A stretch of 64,000 nt of DNA from a phage, in the NCBI GenBank assembly GCA_021469345.1, contig GCA_021469345.1_3049.1; one strand, given 5' to 3'. The notes beneath the pieces were generated by a model. That model was not told where the DNA came from. It saw only the letters and a program-made list of their open reading frames with translations, and did not search any database. Each line of letters begins with the position of its first letter. Position 1 is the stretch's first letter. Shown here piece after piece: positions 39,585 to 46,380 of the stretch. Made by a program: the position numbers and the translations under genes.

Positions 39585-39917
39585 ATGAAAACGATTAATC
39601 TGAACGCTGCAGTTAAAACTAAATGCTTCAATGGTAAATATGATGAAACTATGTGGTTCTTAATGGCAGTTGAAGGTGATATTATTGAAGTAGAAACAAC
39701 AGAAGGTATGGGAACAGATTTCACCTTTACAATTCAAGTTCATAATTTCTTTACTGGTTGGATTTATGAATTGAATACAGTAATCGTTGGAAAAATTGAA
39801 CAAAATGAATTAGGTGAATGGTATTATGTTACAGCTCGCCAACGTGCCGAACGCTTAATTGAGAAGATGAAAAAAGTTGGTAAACTTGACATGAAGCACT
39901 GGAAAGTAGTAAAATAA
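39585..39917 (+). CDS. hypothetical protein (110 aa)
   Basis: ORF track; SD AAGGAGA. Confidence 0.5.
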   Translation: MKTINLNAAVKTKCFNGKYDETMWFLMAVEGDIIEVETTEGMGTDFTFTIQVHNFFTGWIYELNTVIVGKIEQNELGEWYYVTARQRAERLIEKMKKVGKLDMKHWKVVK

Positions 39918-40678: not shown

Positions 40679-40875
40679 TGAAATTCTTTTTAGGTCAAAC
40701 TGTTGAATTAAAGGGAGTTGGTATACCTGGATTAATTTCTAAGGTTCTACCTCCATTTAAATGGAGCGATGTTCAAATAAAAGAGGCTTATATTGTTTCC
40801 TGGGTAGATGGAAATGAAGACCTTCGTATGGGTGATGAATTATCTCCTATTTACGGATTAAAGGAATTAGTATGA
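40678..40875 (+). CDS. hypothetical protein (65 aa)
   Basis: ORF track. Confidence 0.45.
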   Translation: MKFFLGQTVELKGVGIPGLISKVLPPFKWSDVQIKEAYIVSWVDGNEDLRMGDELSPIYGLKELV

Positions 40876-41078
40876 ATATAATTAATAAGATTTTTGGAAT
40901 TCAGTACATTAAGGTCACATATAAAGTAACAGATAAAAATCCGTATACTGATGAACATGAAGAACCACAAGTTAAGTCTATTATATTAGAAAAGGACCCT
41001 AACTGGCCAGTTGAATTTCGTCTTCCTTGCTATGGTCATTGGGCTGATGTTGAAATTATAAGTATTGAAAATGCCTGA
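40872..41078 (+). CDS. hypothetical protein (68 aa)
   Basis: ORF track. Confidence 0.45.
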   Translation: MNIINKIFGIQYIKVTYKVTDKNPYTDEHEEPQVKSIILEKDPNWPVEFRLPCYGHWADVEIISIENA

Positions 41079-41529
41079 GTTAGAGATTAGAAGCAATTTT
41101 AGATGGCCATCATGCGCATTAAGCAATTTCGCCCAATGGCCTTTCGTTATGGATGGTATCCAATTTGGAGGTCTCGAAGGATTCCTCCAAGGATGTAAGG
41201 TGAAAAATGTTGAACAACAAAGACGTATATTTGGGTTGTCTGGATTGGCTGCACAGCAAGCTGGAAGGTCTTATGCAAGAGCTCAGGACCGTGGAACTCT
41301 CTTCTGGTTAGGAGTTCCGTTTTCAAGATACTCCGAAGCGTGGAAAGAATTATACACAAATGCATATTTTGAAGCCGCGATCCAAAATAAGGGGTTTCGT
41401 GATGCCTTACAAGCCTCTAAAGGAAAAATTTTGAAGCACAGCATGGCCAGCCACCTAACAAAAGATGATACAATACTAACTGAAGCTGAATTTATTGATG
41501 TGTTAAACCTATTAAGAGACTCTTTATGA
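41065..41529 (+). CDS. NADAR-like (YbiA/DUF1768-type) protein, candidate ADP-ribose-processing enzyme; 30.3 position
   Basis: LSNFAQWPFVMDGIQFGGLEGFLQGCKV resembles the FSNFxxWP...DG...SEHYFQAxKF core of E. coli YbiA, as recalled. Confidence 0.55.
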   Translation: MKMPELEIRSNFRWPSCALSNFAQWPFVMDGIQFGGLEGFLQGCKVKNVEQQRRIFGLSGLAAQQAGRSYARAQDRGTLFWLGVPFSRYSEAWKELYTNAYFEAAIQNKGFRDALQASKGKILKHSMASHLTKDDTILTEAEFIDVLNLLRDSL

Positions 41530-42365
41530 AGCCTACTATTTTAACTGATATTGATGGAGTATGTTTAAGCTGGCAATCAGGCCTTCCTTATTTTGCTCAG
41601 AAATATAATCTTCCGTTGGAACATATTTTAAAAATGATCCAAGATGAAAAATTTATTTCTCCTGGTAAACTTTTTAATTGTGATGAAGAACTTGGCGTCA
41701 AGTTAATTGAAAAATACAATCGTTCGGATTTTATTCGTTACTTGTCTCCATATAAAGATGCTCTGTGTGTAATTAACAAATTAAAAGAAGATTATAATTT
41801 TGTAGCTGTTACAGCATTGGGTGATTCTATTGACGCTCTGTTGAATCGTCAATTTAATTTGAATGCTCTTTTTCCTGGTGCCTTCTCAGAAGTAATGATG
41901 TGTGGTCATGATTCTTCAAAAGAAGAGTTGTTCAAAAAGGCAAAAGAGAAATATAACGTAATTTGTTATATTGACGATCTCGCTCACCACTGCGATCATG
42001 CGAGTGAAATATTAAATGTTCCTGTTTATTGGATGGCTCGAGGGGAGCGTGACAGTATTCCAAAAACTGCTCAGCGAGTTTATACATGGAACGATGTAGA
42101 GAATAAGCTTTTTTCACCAAAGGAAAATAAAGAAAGTTTTGATCGTGAAAAAGCTATAAAAGATGCAATCGAGAAGATGATTAAAAACGATTCTTTTCGT
42201 TGGAACACTACTTGGAGAACTCCTGGATTTAATCCTTATAATCATCTATATCATCCATATCAGACGCATCCGTTTCAGACATGGAACTATATTAAACCCG
42301 GCGGTATAGAGTATTTGTATAATAGACCTACTTGTGGTGATAATATTTTCCAAGGAGCATTCTAA
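41526..42365 (+). CDS. HAD-superfamily hydrolase-like protein (279 aa), 30.2 position
   Basis: N-terminal LTDIDGV motif I of HAD phosphatases. Confidence 0.55.
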   Translation: MKPTILTDIDGVCLSWQSGLPYFAQKYNLPLEHILKMIQDEKFISPGKLFNCDEELGVKLIEKYNRSDFIRYLSPYKDALCVINKLKEDYNFVAVTALGDSIDALLNRQFNLNALFPGAFSEVMMCGHDSSKEELFKKAKEKYNVICYIDDLAHHCDHASEILNVPVYWMARGERDSIPKTAQRVYTWNDVENKLFSPKENKESFDREKAIKDAIEKMIKNDSFRWNTTWRTPGFNPYNHLYHPYQTHPFQTWNYIKPGGIEYLYNRPTCGDNIFQGAF

Positions 42366-42634
42366 TGTTTGTTGTTCACACTATTTATGAAAATGAAGGT
42401 AATACTACACGTGATTACGGTCACGTAAATCAATTTTTTAGATGCAATCCAGAATTCCGATCTCAAAAAGACGAACGAATTTTTAAAAAATGCGTAGAGC
42501 AAGGTTTCATTTATATCAAGCACTGGATGCAAGGAAATAAAGTTAGAACTACATATCATAAGTCTTTGCCTGAGCTTAATGATGAATTGATTTATAATAG
42601 AGCTGTAAACCAAACTCTAAAGGATGAACAATGA
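42365..42634 (+). CDS. hypothetical protein (89 aa), 30.1 position
   Basis: ORF track. Confidence 0.5.
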   Translation: MFVVHTIYENEGNTTRDYGHVNQFFRCNPEFRSQKDERIFKKCVEQGFIYIKHWMQGNKVRTTYHKSLPELNDELIYNRAVNQTLKDEQ

Positions 42635-44094
42635 TTCTTAAAATTCTGAACGAAATAGCATCTATTGGTTCAACTAAGCAGAAGCAAGCAATTCTTGAAA
42701 AGAATAAAGATAATGAATTGCTTAAACGAGTATATCGTCTGACTTATTCTCGTGGGTTGCAGTATTATATTAAGAAATGGCCTAAACCTGGTATTGCTAC
42801 CCAGAGTTTTGGAATGTTGACTCTTACCGATATGCTTGACTTCATTGAATTCACATTAGCTACTCGGAAATTGACTGGAAATGCAGCAATTGAGGAATTA
42901 ACTGGATATATCACTGATGGTAAAAAAGATGATGTTGAAGTTTTGCGTCGGGTGATGATGCGAGACCTTGAATGTGGTGCTTCAGTATCTATTGCAAACA
43001 AAGTTTGGCCAGGTTTAATTCCTGAACAACCTCAAATGCTTGCAAGTTCTTATGATGAAAAAGGCATTAATAAGAATATCAAATTTCCAGCTTTTGCCCA
43101 GTTAAAAGCTGATGGAGCTCGGTGCTTTGCCGAAGTCAGAGGTGATGAATTAGATGATGTTCGTCTTTTATCACGAGCCGGTAATGAATATCTAGGATTA
43201 GATCTTCTTAAGGAAGAATTAATCAAAATGACCGCTGAAGCCCGCCAGATTCATCCAGAAGGCGTGTTAATTGATGGCGAATTGGTATACCATGAGCAAG
43301 TTAAAAAGGAACCAGAAGGCCTAGATTTTCTTTTTGATGCTCATCCTGAAAACAGTAAAGTTAAAGACTTCACAGAAGTAGCTGAATCACGTACTGCATC
43401 TAATGGCATCGCCAATAAATCTTTAAAGGGAACCATTTCTGAAAAAGAAGCTCAATGCATGAAGTTTCAGGTCTGGGATTATGTTCCGTTGGTAGAAATA
43501 TACGGTCTTCCTGCATTTCGTTTGAAATATGATGTACGTTTTTCTAAACTAGAACAAATGACATCAGGCTATGATAAAGTAATTTTAATTGAAAACCAGG
43601 TAGTAAATAACCTAGATGAAGCTAAGGTAATTTATAAAAAGTATATTGACCAAGGTCTTGAAGGTATTATTCTCAAAAATATCGATGGATTATGGGAAAA
43701 TGCTCGTTCAAAAAATCTCTATAAATTTAAAGAAGTAATTGATGTTGATTTAAAAATTGTAGGAATTTATCCTCACCGTAAAGACCCTACTAAAGCAGGT
43801 GGATTTATTCTTGAATCAGAGTGTGGAAAAATTAAGGTAAATGCTGGTTCAGGCTTAAAAGATAAAGCCGGTGTAAAATCGCATGAACTTGACCGTACTC
43901 GCATTATGGAAAACCAAAATTATTATATTGGAAAAATTCTAGAGTGCGAATGCAACGGTTGGTTAAAATCTGATGGCCGCACTGATTACGTTAAATTATT
44001 TCTTCCGATTGCGATTCGTTTACGCGAAGATAAAACTAAAGCTAATACATTTGAGGATGTATTTGGTGATTTTCATGAGGTAACTGGTCTATGA
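42631..44094 (+). CDS. 30: ATP-dependent DNA ligase
   Basis: 487 aa; adenylation-site KADGAR; length equals T4 ligase. Confidence 0.95.
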   Translation: MILKILNEIASIGSTKQKQAILEKNKDNELLKRVYRLTYSRGLQYYIKKWPKPGIATQSFGMLTLTDMLDFIEFTLATRKLTGNAAIEELTGYITDGKKDDVEVLRRVMMRDLECGASVSIANKVWPGLIPEQPQMLASSYDEKGINKNIKFPAFAQLKADGARCFAEVRGDELDDVRLLSRAGNEYLGLDLLKEELIKMTAEARQIHPEGVLIDGELVYHEQVKKEPEGLDFLFDAHPENSKVKDFTEVAESRTASNGIANKSLKGTISEKEAQCMKFQVWDYVPLVEIYGLPAFRLKYDVRFSKLEQMTSGYDKVILIENQVVNNLDEAKVIYKKYIDQGLEGIILKNIDGLWENARSKNLYKFKEVIDVDLKIVGIYPHRKDPTKAGGFILESECGKIKVNAGSGLKDKAGVKSHELDRTRIMENQNYYIGKILECECNGWLKSDGRTDYVKLFLPIAIRLREDKTKANTFEDVFGDFHEVTGL

Positions 44095-44308: not shown

Positions 44309-44331
44309 GAATAAACACTAGAGAGGTTATG

Positions 44332-46380
44332 ATGGAACTTATTACAGAATTATTTGATGAAGATACTACTCTTCCGATTACAAACTTAAATCCAAAGAAG
44401 AAAATACCACAAATTTTTTCAGTTCATGTTGATGACGCAATTGAACAACCAGGCTTTCGTTTATGTACCTATACATCTGGAGGTGATACTAATCGTGATT
44501 TAAAGATGGGCGATAAAATGATGCATATTGTTCCTTTTACATTAACCGCTAAAGGTTCAATTGCTAAATTGAAAGGTCTTGGTCCAAGCCCAATTAATTA
44601 TATCAATTCGGTTTTTACTGTTGCAATGCAAACAATGCGTCAGTATAAAATTGATGCCTGCATGCTTCGTATTCTTAAGTCTAAAACCGCCGGTCAAGCT
44701 CGACAAATTCAAGTTATTGCTGATAGACTTATCCGTAGTCGTTCAGGTGGCAGATACGTCCTTCTTAAGGAACTCTGGGATTATGATAAAAAGTATGCAT
44801 ATATTCTTATACATCGCAAAAATGTATCACTAGAAGACATTCCAGGGGTTCCGGAAATTAGTACCGAGCTCTTTACTAAAGTTGAATCGAAGGTCGGTGA
44901 TGTTTATATCAATAAAGATACTGGAGCTCAAGTAACTAAAAATGAGGCAATTGCAGCATCTATTGCACAAGAAAATGATAAACGTTCTGACCAAGCTGTA
45001 ATCGTTAAAGTTAAAATTTCCCGTAGAGCAATTGCACAAAGTCAGTCATTGGAATCTTCTAGATTTGAAACACCGATGTTTCAAAAATTTGAGGCTTCAG
45101 CGGCAGAATTAAATAAACCAGCGGACGCGCCTTTAATTTCTGATTCTAATGAATTAACGGTAATTTCTACTTCAGGATTTGCACTAGAGAATGCTCTTAG
45201 CAGTGTTACAGCTGGGATGGCATTCAGAGAAGCTTCTATAATTCCTGAAGATAAAGAATCCATTATTAATGCAGAAATAAAAAATAAAGCTTTAGAAAAA
45301 TTACGAAAAGAATCTATTACTTCAATAAAAACTTTAGAAACTATTGCTTCTATCGTCGATGATACTTTAGAAAAATATAAAGGTGCTTGGTTTGAAAGAA
45401 ATATTAACAAACATTCGCATTTAAATCAAGATGCTGCAAATGAGTTAGTACAAAATTCTTGGAATGCAATAAAAACAAAGATTATTCGAAGAGAATTACG
45501 TGGATATGCTCTTACCGCTGGATGGTCATTACATCCTATAGTCGAAAATAAAGATTCATCTAAATACACACCAGCGCAAAAACGCGGAATTCGTGAATAT
45601 GTAGGTTCAGGATATGTAGACATGAATAATGCTCTTTTGGGATTATATAATCCAGATGAGCGTACAAGTATTTTAACAGCATCTGAAATAGAACAAGCCA
45701 TTGATAATTTAGATTCAGCCTTTAAAAATGGTGAACGATTACCAAAAGGTATTACTTTGTATCGTTCACAACGAATGTTACCTTCAATATATGAAGCAAT
45801 GGTAAAAAATCGAGTTTTTTATTTTAGAAACTTTGTGTCAACATCATTATATCCAAATATTTTTGGTACTTGGATGACTGATTCATCTATAGGTGTTTTA
45901 CCAGACGAAAAGCGTCTAAGTGTTTCTATTGATAAAACTGATGAAGGACTAGTAAATTCTAGCGATAATTTAGTTGGAATTGGATGGGTTATTACTGGGG
46001 CTGATAAGGTCAATGTTGTTTTACCCGGTGGAAGTTTAGCGCCTTCAAATGAAATGGAAGTCATTTTGCCACGTGGATTAATGGTCAAAGTTAATAAAAT
46101 AACCGATGCATCTTACAACGATGGAACAGTTAGAACTAACAACAAGCTTATTCAAGCTGAAGTTATGACCACAGAAGAACTCACCGAATCGGTAATCTAT
46201 GACGGAGACCATTTAATGGAAACTGGTGAATTGGTTACAATGACAGGTGATATAGAAGACAGAGTTGACTTTGCATCATTTGTTTCATCAAATGTTAAAC
46301 AGAAAGTAGAATCATCTCTTGGAATTATTGCGTCTTGCATAGATATTGCAAACATGCCTTACAAGTTCGTTCAAGGATAA
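44332..46380 (+). CDS. alt: Alt ADP-ribosyltransferase (packaged; modifies host RNA polymerase)
   Basis: 682 aa from ATG 44332; MELITELFDEDTTLPITNLNPKKK... matches T4 Alt. Confidence 0.9.
   Translation: MELITELFDEDTTLPITNLNPKKKIPQIFSVHVDDAIEQPGFRLCTYTSGGDTNRDLKMGDKMMHIVPFTLTAKGSIAKLKGLGPSPINYINSVFTVAMQTMRQYKIDACMLRILKSKTAGQARQIQVIADRLIRSRSGGRYVLLKELWDYDKKYAYILIHRKNVSLEDIPGVPEISTELFTKVESKVGDVYINKDTGAQVTKNEAIAASIAQENDKRSDQAVIVKVKISRRAIAQSQSLESSRFETPMFQKFEASAAELNKPADAPLISDSNELTVISTSGFALENALSSVTAGMAFREASIIPEDKESIINAEIKNKALEKLRKESITSIKTLETIASIVDDTLEKYKGAWFERNINKHSHLNQDAANELVQNSWNAIKTKIIRRELRGYALTAGWSLHPIVENKDSSKYTPAQKRGIREYVGSGYVDMNNALLGLYNPDERTSILTASEIEQAIDNLDSAFKNGERLPKGITLYRSQRMLPSIYEAMVKNRVFYFRNFVSTSLYPNIFGTWMTDSSIGVLPDEKRLSVSIDKTDEGLVNSSDNLVGIGWVITGADKVNVVLPGGSLAPSNEMEVILPRGLMVKVNKITDASYNDGTVRTNNKLIQAEVMTTEELTESVIYDGDHLMETGELVTMTGDIEDRVDFASFVSSNVKQKVESSLGIIASCIDIANMPYKFVQG

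Follow-up and report, generated by a model that had tools for sequence, protein, structure and literature searches.

The window analysed here is a stretch of 64,000 nucleotides from a T4-like phage (Tequatrovirus; GenBank assembly GCA_021469345.1), in which the genes of this region follow one another as in T4, namely 30.7, 30.6, 30.5, 30.4, 30.3, 30.2, 30.1, 30 (ligase), alt.1 and alt. The genes flanking 30.3 are 95-99% identical to those of T4, their order is kept, with 30.3 positioned between 30.4 and 30.2, and a 2.4-kb region around 30.3 matches 723 phage records (best match 96.6%). The ORF list opens the frame of interest on the + strand at a TTG (41065..41529, 154 aa), two codons before the ATG at 41071. 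We consider this ATG the biologically likelier start of 30.3, giving a protein of 152 residues, because it reproduces both the length and the start of the annotated T4 30.3 (459 nt) and because it overlaps the end of ORF 40872..41078 just upstream, whose stop runs into the start of 30.3 (ATGCCTGA). At the other end, the stop of 30.3 overlaps the start of 30.2 within the ATGA at 41526..41529. The features of the region are collected in Table 1.

Table 1. Genes and sequence features at the 30.3 locus, in window coordinates.
Feature	Coordinates	Strand	Remarks
gene 30.4	40872..41078	+	68 aa; phrog_2042; stop overlaps the start of 30.3 by 8 nt, making coupled translation likely
adfN / gene 30.3 CDS	41071..41529	+	152 aa from ATG; stop codon TGA at 41527..41529; PF08010 match and identity to T4 gp30.3
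NADAR core motif LSNFAQWPFVMDGIQFGGLEGFLQGCKV	41119..41202	+	residues 17-44 (T4 numbering); aligns with FSNFAAWPIKVDGKTWPTSEHYFQAQKF of YbiA
E36 codon, catalytic Glu (distal ribose)	41176..41178	+	invariant in alignment A1; aligns with the Glu of YbiA SEHYF
K43 codon, phosphate-binding Lys	41197..41199	+	present in 90% or more of the A1 sequences
H123 codon	41437..41439	+	invariant in A1; last beta-strand (strand 120-123 in the model)
C-terminal helix, residues 138-151	41482..41523	+	intact here; helix in the model
gene 30.2	41526..42365	+	HAD-fold hydrolase (residues 1-200) with disordered C-terminal tail; 97% identical to T4 30.2
gene 30.1 (DUF3045)	42365..42634	+	PF11243, E 8e-63
gene 30, ATP-dependent DNA ligase	42631..44094	+	PF01068, E 4e-33; 99% identical to T4 gp30
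alt, protein ADP-ribosyltransferase	44329..46380	+	PF03496, E 3e-34; 99% identical to T4 Alt

Two further elements of the region deserve mention. T4 carries an annotated internal ORF, 30.3' (75 aa), in the +1 frame relative to 30.3; its counterpart here (41207..41434, + strand) meets a stop after 34 codons, and we rejected it as a gene of this phage, given that it is not conserved and is cut by the stop, so that it is probably no gene. The best sigma-70-like promoter match, TTGACA-18-TAAAAT (39886..39915, + strand), lies upstream of 30.7 and is a weak candidate that could drive the abutting chain of genes from 30.7 to 30. The promoter scan as a whole was not enriched over shuffled sequences (33 found vs. 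29.5 expected), and as neither promoter nor terminator scanning exceeded the shuffles, the boundaries of the transcription units are uncertain.

The product of the frame matched the Pfam family PF08010, Phage_30_3 ('Bacteriophage protein GP30.3'), over the entire model (positions 1-138) with an E of 1.2e-69 and 232.9 bits vs. a cut-off of 36, and this resemblance to a known family is not a matter of chance. Compared with T4 gp30.3, 147 of the 152 residues are identical (97%), the five substitutions being S2P, P89E, V120I, I125M and G128H; two of these fall in the loop directly after H123, and M125 is the consensus residue of the family in an alignment of 68 relatives (alignment A1), which also served as a search profile. 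We conclude that the ORF is orthologous to gene 30.3 of T4, which has since been renamed adfN (anti-DarT factor NADAR). A tblastn search found homologues in 1,511 phage records: about 730 with at least 80% identity are T-even phages, and about 780 with less than 60% identity infect Klebsiella, Aeromonas, Acinetobacter, Vibrio and other hosts.

The first-pass annotation had likened the frame to the YbiA/NADAR core on account of the peptide LSNFAQWPFVMDGIQFGGLEGFLQGCKV, which indeed lies at 41119..41202 within the 154-aa frame, and had proposed a PF08719 search together with a structural comparison to YbiA. The outcome of the former depends on the sequence that is searched: the window protein itself gave no PF08719 match at E<=1, whereas 25 of the 68 relatives matched this model on their own (best E 1.5e-7), and the link also emerged from profile-profile and fold comparison. 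The test fails for the window protein because the phage clade has a Pfam model of its own, PF08010. Likewise, phmmer of the window protein against PDB sequences returned nothing at E<=10, and none of the NCBIfam and PADLOC models matched it. With the A1 profile, E. coli YbiA became the top match among PDB sequences (E 0.0044), and hhalign of this profile against YbiA yielded a probability of 93.7% (E 1.9e-7, 91 columns). An AlphaFold2 model built on A1 (pLDDT 93.1, pTM 0.89) was matched by Foldseek to the YbiA structure 2b3w (E 6.5e-5, TM 0.69), and the only two other meaningful PDB matches were the NADARs of Phytophthora (8bau) and Geobacter (8bat). The resemblance to YbiA is thus borne out by profile, relatives and fold alike. 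The kinship of the 30.3 protein to NADAR is real but remote, and since single-sequence searches miss it, profiles and structure are needed to recover it.

The residues expected of a NADAR enzyme are in place. Within the core motif, A16, L17, S18, N19, F20, E36, G37, F38 and Q40 are invariant in the 68 relatives, and E36 and K43, both conserved in the family, form an E-x6-K motif (LEGFLQGCK) that aligns with SEHYFQAQK of YbiA; K95 of the E. coli C7 NADAR, the equivalent of K43, is essential (PMC11543638). At the third catalytic position, in the last strand, the YbiA family has Glu and the DarT1-linked NADARs have Asp, while phage NADARs carry a His that marks the gp30.3 clade as defined in PMC11543638 and PMC11125620; the window protein has this mark as H123. 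Based on these features, we regard the product as, with high probability, a 152-aa single-domain N-glycosidase of the NADAR fold, encoded by a stand-alone early phage gene.

The role of this gene is already known from T4, the NADAR having been flagged by comparative genomics, with hydrolysis of guanine-ADP-ribose shown in 2024, the name AdfN given to the DarTG1 counter-defence in 2025 and confirmation by transposon sequencing. Iyer et al. 2022 (PMC9503650) described the NADARs of T4-like phages as early genes encoded along with ADP-ribosyltransferases (ARTs), and Schuller et al. 2023 (PMC11543638) established NADARs as DarTG1 antitoxins that hydrolyse guanine-ADP-ribose. In Cihlova et al. 2024 (PMC11125620), the phage clade is named 'gp30.3 proteins' and a T4 NADAR is reported as active on guanine-ADPr and inactive on thymine-ADPr. 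The Methods section of that study gives the construct 'E. coli T4 phage NADAR (gp30.3)' as residues 1-208 vs. 152 residues for the T4 protein; it may represent another phage homologue, or tags may have been counted in the length, and owing to this mismatch the in vitro evidence leans in part on PMC11825919, where the activity was assayed independently. The latter work (Nature Communications, 2025) traced the resistance of T-even phages against DarTG1 to 30.3, renamed the gene adfN, and reported that purified T4 AdfN strips ADP-ribose from DarT1-modified DNA with no binding of DarT1, that E36A and K43A impair the protein, and that T4 lacking adfN becomes sensitive to DarTG1, as shown by deletion and complementation. 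By the same account, full activity of T4 AdfN was seen only during T-even infection, suggesting an additional phage factor; DarT1 toxicity in uninfected cells was not rescued by T4 AdfN; and AdfN functioned poorly in T5 or Bas25 while ectopic AdfN functioned in RB69.

A transposon screen in T4 (2025 preprint 10.1101/2025.11.20.689424), which reported 30.3 as conditionally essential on DarTG1, allowed the neighbouring genes to be judged as well. We used supplementary Data S6 (control vs. DarTG1) and Data S7 (DarTG2), the sheet for Data S6 being recognised by the description tab and by the 'Data S7 ... DarTG2' header that follows it immediately. Mean insertions in 30.3 fell from 261.0 to 0.7 on DarTG1 (log2FC -7.25, adjusted p 0) and were unchanged on DarTG2 (0.03); the gene was dispensable on K-12 and mattered only when DarTG1 was present. 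No significant change on DarTG1 was seen for 30.2 (271.5 to 249.8, log2FC -0.12, p 0.61), 30.1 (log2FC -0.01), alt (log2FC -0.01) or adfA/61.2 (log2FC -0.34). The only other gene significantly depleted on DarTG1 was 30.4 (375.9 to 108.0, log2FC -1.79, adjusted p 0.014), which was neutral on DarTG2.

Taken together, we propose the following sequence of events for the window phage. Host DarTG1 would release DarT1, which would ADP-ribosylate N2 of guanine in single-stranded phage DNA and thereby block replication. AdfN would then bind the ADP-ribose moiety, with E36 at the distal ribose and K43 at the phosphates, while H123, which in the last strand substitutes for the Glu or Asp found in other NADARs, would lie near the scissile bond. 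Hydrolysis of the N-glycosidic bond between guanine N2 and ribose would free ADP-ribose and restore the unmodified guanine, allowing the phage to replicate. Orthology, fold, conservation of the catalytic residues and an intact full-length allele are established here; hydrolysis of guanine-ADPr and counter-defence against DarTG1 are, judging from the T4 protein, in all likelihood properties of the window allele too. The removal of ADP-ribose from guanine and the anti-DarT function, both of which had been suggested from the letters alone, have accordingly been demonstrated for a 97%-identical T4 orthologue, as reported in PMC11825919 and PMC11125620.

The state of the allele matters in view of RB69, which according to PMC11825919 is sensitive to DarTG1 owing to insertion of a T at nt 411 that truncates the last helix, C-terminal truncation being reported there to lower AdfN activity. 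When the DNA of the window was aligned with that of T4 and RB69, the extra T was present only in RB69; the insertion falls after nt 410 of the gene, corresponding to about 41481 in the window, and is absent from the window allele, which is full length and in the model keeps the C-terminal helix 138-151. At the DNA level, 30.3 is 93.7% identical to RB69 vs. 91.1% to T4, whereas its flanks are 95-98% identical to T4 and 30.4 and 30.2 are only 65-70% identical to RB69. This mosaic island at 30.3 points to a recent cross-genus exchange of a putative counter-defence gene. The island itself extends over 41043..41641, comprising 30.3 together with ~110 nt at the start of 30.2, with 85-98% identity to RB69 (Mosigvirus); beside it, identity to RB69 drops to ~60% in the adjacent 30.4 and ~50% in distal 30.2. 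Truncated 30.3 products of 89-126 aa also occur among protein-database cluster representatives (P0004-P0007, P0013, P0014), and broken alleles like that of RB69 may recur in nature, or these may be sequencing errors.

The neighbours named in the first-pass annotation, a HAD-like hydrolase, a DNA ligase and alt at about 3 kb, are all present, with alt beginning 2.8 kb downstream of 30.3. Gene 30.2, which no Pfam or NCBIfam model recognises, has D8 and D10 (the DxD nucleophile of HAD motif I) and K132 (the motif III Lys) invariant and D150 and D151 (the acidic pair of motif IV) nearly invariant in 43 relatives; its model has a pLDDT above 90 for residues 1-200, and among the matches listed from 99 PDB matches at E<=0.001 in Foldseek, the top ones were enzymes of the HAD superfamily, including 5'(3')-deoxyribonucleotidases. 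The C-terminal tail of ~80 aa is poorly conserved and disordered. From this neighbourhood it had been surmised that 30.3, the HAD protein, the ligase and Alt act as one pathway for processing ADP-ribosylated nucleic acid, in which, for example, the NADAR would remove the adduct, the HAD enzyme trim a phosphorylated remnant and the ligase seal the strand. The genes do abut or overlap on one strand, as exemplified by the ATGA at 41526, 30.2 is a genuine, deoxyribonucleotidase-like HAD-fold enzyme, and the T-even factor suggested in PMC11825919 as necessary for full T4 AdfN activity would leave room for a partner. However, insertions in 30.2, 30.1 and alt were without defect under conditions where 30.3 was lost, 30.2 being non-essential in T4 and neutral on both DarTG1 and DarTG2; as the ligase is essential in T4, the screen cannot judge this gene. 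In addition, hydrolysis by a NADAR, by the mechanism in PMC11543638, leaves an intact guanine, so that neither a nick nor a phosphate remnant would remain to be repaired.

Comparison with distant loci leads in the same direction. In favour of a shared pathway, 30.2 also adjoins 30.3 in L019 and in phage AC4 of Acinetobacter, and a different, NT5C-like HAD follows a 30.3 homologue in Vibrio phage CZ01, within other surroundings. Among 80 distant IMG/VR loci with a 30.3 homologue, however, neither 30.2 nor the ligase lay within 4 kb in about 55, both being near in T-even phages and a small number of related lineages only; the downstream neighbours were heterogeneous (helicases, the ligase directly, small ORFs), as were those upstream. 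Where 30.2 and 30.3 are apart (L020, L040, L041, L045 and L082), 30.2 stays beside the ligase and not beside 30.3. We therefore consider a common pathway of these genes very unlikely, and for DarTG1 it is already largely refuted; the adjacency of 30.3, 30.2 and the ligase is inherited T-even gene order. On the Tn-seq data and the lack of conserved linkage, we also rejected 30.2 as the missing potentiator of AdfN. In CZ01 (L004:4001-4952), the 30.3 homologue is followed by an overlapping HAD-family deoxyribonucleotidase and then gp47, unlike the ligase region of T4; we did not accept this HAD protein as a 30.2 orthologue, as its BLASTP match did not extend beyond the region of motif I (E 0.003), which indicates a different HAD subfamily.

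A separate observation on the distant loci concerns tRNA genes, one of which lay no more than 1.5 kb from the 30.3 homologue in 19 of 60 loci (around position 4000 of L034, L037, L051, L052, L055, L059-L063, L066, L067, L071, L075-L078, L026 and L005), with tRNAs on both sides in 17. A tRNA-Arg(UCU) is often directly downstream of the homologue, and the clustering spans several distinct contexts, including Ralstonia phage RSP15. Such siting could simply reflect a hot spot for accessory genes.

The depletion of 30.4 on DarTG1 raises the prospect that gp30.4 is the T-even-specific factor needed for full activity of T4 AdfN. Gene 30.4 is confined to Tevenvirinae, RB69 included, with no homologue outside this group found by a 30.4 HMM across 85 loci, and it would not be expected in T5 or Bas25, where AdfN functions poorly according to PMC11825919. 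Our literature search on gp30.2 and gp30.4 found nothing, and the main text of the preprint reporting the screen makes no mention of 30.4. We nevertheless judge such a role for gp30.4 to be unlikely. Loss of translational coupling to 30.3 is the more likely explanation of the depletion, because the Shine-Dalgarno sequence of 30.3 is weak and its start overlaps 30.4 by 8 nt; simple transcriptional polarity is unlikely, since insertions in 30.6 and 30.7 were neutral on DarTG1. One T4-like genome (IMGVR_UViG_2974742932, L010:3795-4010) has an intact 30.3 (95% identical) next to a frameshifted 30.4.

Two other readings of the substrate were weighed against the removal of guanine adducts from DNA. 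The 30.3 protein might chiefly hydrolyse small molecules, either as an N-glycosidase of riboflavin intermediates akin to YbiA or as a degrader of soluble immune signals derived from ADP-ribose. Fold and core motif are shared with YbiA, genomic context has led to the proposal that phage NADARs degrade such signals, and NADARs without linkage to DarT may have other physiological targets (PMC11543638). On the other hand, His123 stands where YbiA has its Glu, the removal of ADP-ribose from DNA was assayed directly (PMC11825919), and the DarTG1-specific phenotype required catalysis. Small molecules as the principal substrate are thus highly improbable, although the protein may have a second substrate besides DNA adducts.

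Alternatively, with alt starting 2.8 kb further downstream on this strand, and with NADARs of T4-like phages expressed early along with ARTs (PMC9503650), the 30.3 protein could reverse or tune the ADP-ribosylation brought about by Alt, ModA or ModB (protein Arg-ADPr or RNAylation), forming a writer-eraser pair. Against this, the cited work (PMC11125620 and PMC11825919) showed NADARs to be active on guanine-ADPr but not on thymine-ADPr; alt insertions were neutral on DarTG1; 30.3 is dispensable on K-12 and needed only with DarTG1; and most distant 30.3 homologues have no ART nearby. We regard a writer-eraser pairing as exceedingly improbable, and removal of ADP-ribose from guanine in phage DNA is the reading we retain.

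For the reading of raw sequence, 30.3 makes a good positive control, in that a motif-based inference turned out to be biologically correct, whereas the standard PF08719 test would wrongly have spoken against NADAR in this phage clade; the tempting idea of a repair module of HAD protein, ligase and Alt can be removed. Most database records still label 30.3 as 'hypothetical protein', so its annotation could be improved. One candidate component in PADLOC, PDC-M42C, was weakly matched by 46 of the 68 gp30.3-family members in A1 (best E 3.4e-5), the window protein not among them, and this candidate defence system may contain a NADAR-like protein.

Among known systems, T4 gp30.3 (AdfN) is the closest, the likeness comprising 97% identity over 152 residues, length, start context, flanking genes, E36, K43, H123 and the C-terminal helix; the window gene differs from it by the five substitutions and its mosaic DNA. 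With RB69 gp30.3, a natural loss-of-function allele, the locus and 93.7% of the DNA are shared, and RB69 alone has the T at nt 411. In contrast to DarG1 of DarTG1 (E. coli C7; Geobacter lovleyi, 8bat; BC4488 family), the window gene is an orphan: no DarT1 toxin gene lies beside it, its neighbours being 30.4 and 30.2 and the only nearby ART being Alt, and no PADLOC defence model matched. The window protein also lacks the N-terminal extension of DarG1 (152 vs. 219 aa) and has His123 where DarG1 has its catalytic Asp. Gene 30.3 is thus an orphan antitoxin-like gene and not a toxin-antitoxin system. Identity to E. coli YbiA (2b3w; PF08719 YbiA family) is ~20%, with His in the window protein vs. 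Glu in YbiA in the last strand; YbiA is encoded by a chromosomal gene adjoining dinG and has a described role in hydrolysis of riboflavin intermediates (PMC11543638 and PMC11125620). With AdfA (T4 61.2), AdfB and AdfM (T4 tk.4), the gene shares a purpose, the evasion of DarTG. AdfA and AdfB are small non-enzymatic binders of DarT and AdfM is a macrodomain protein aimed at DarTG2 (thymine); AdfN, by contrast, is an enzyme specific for the guanine adduct, and it does not bind DarT1.
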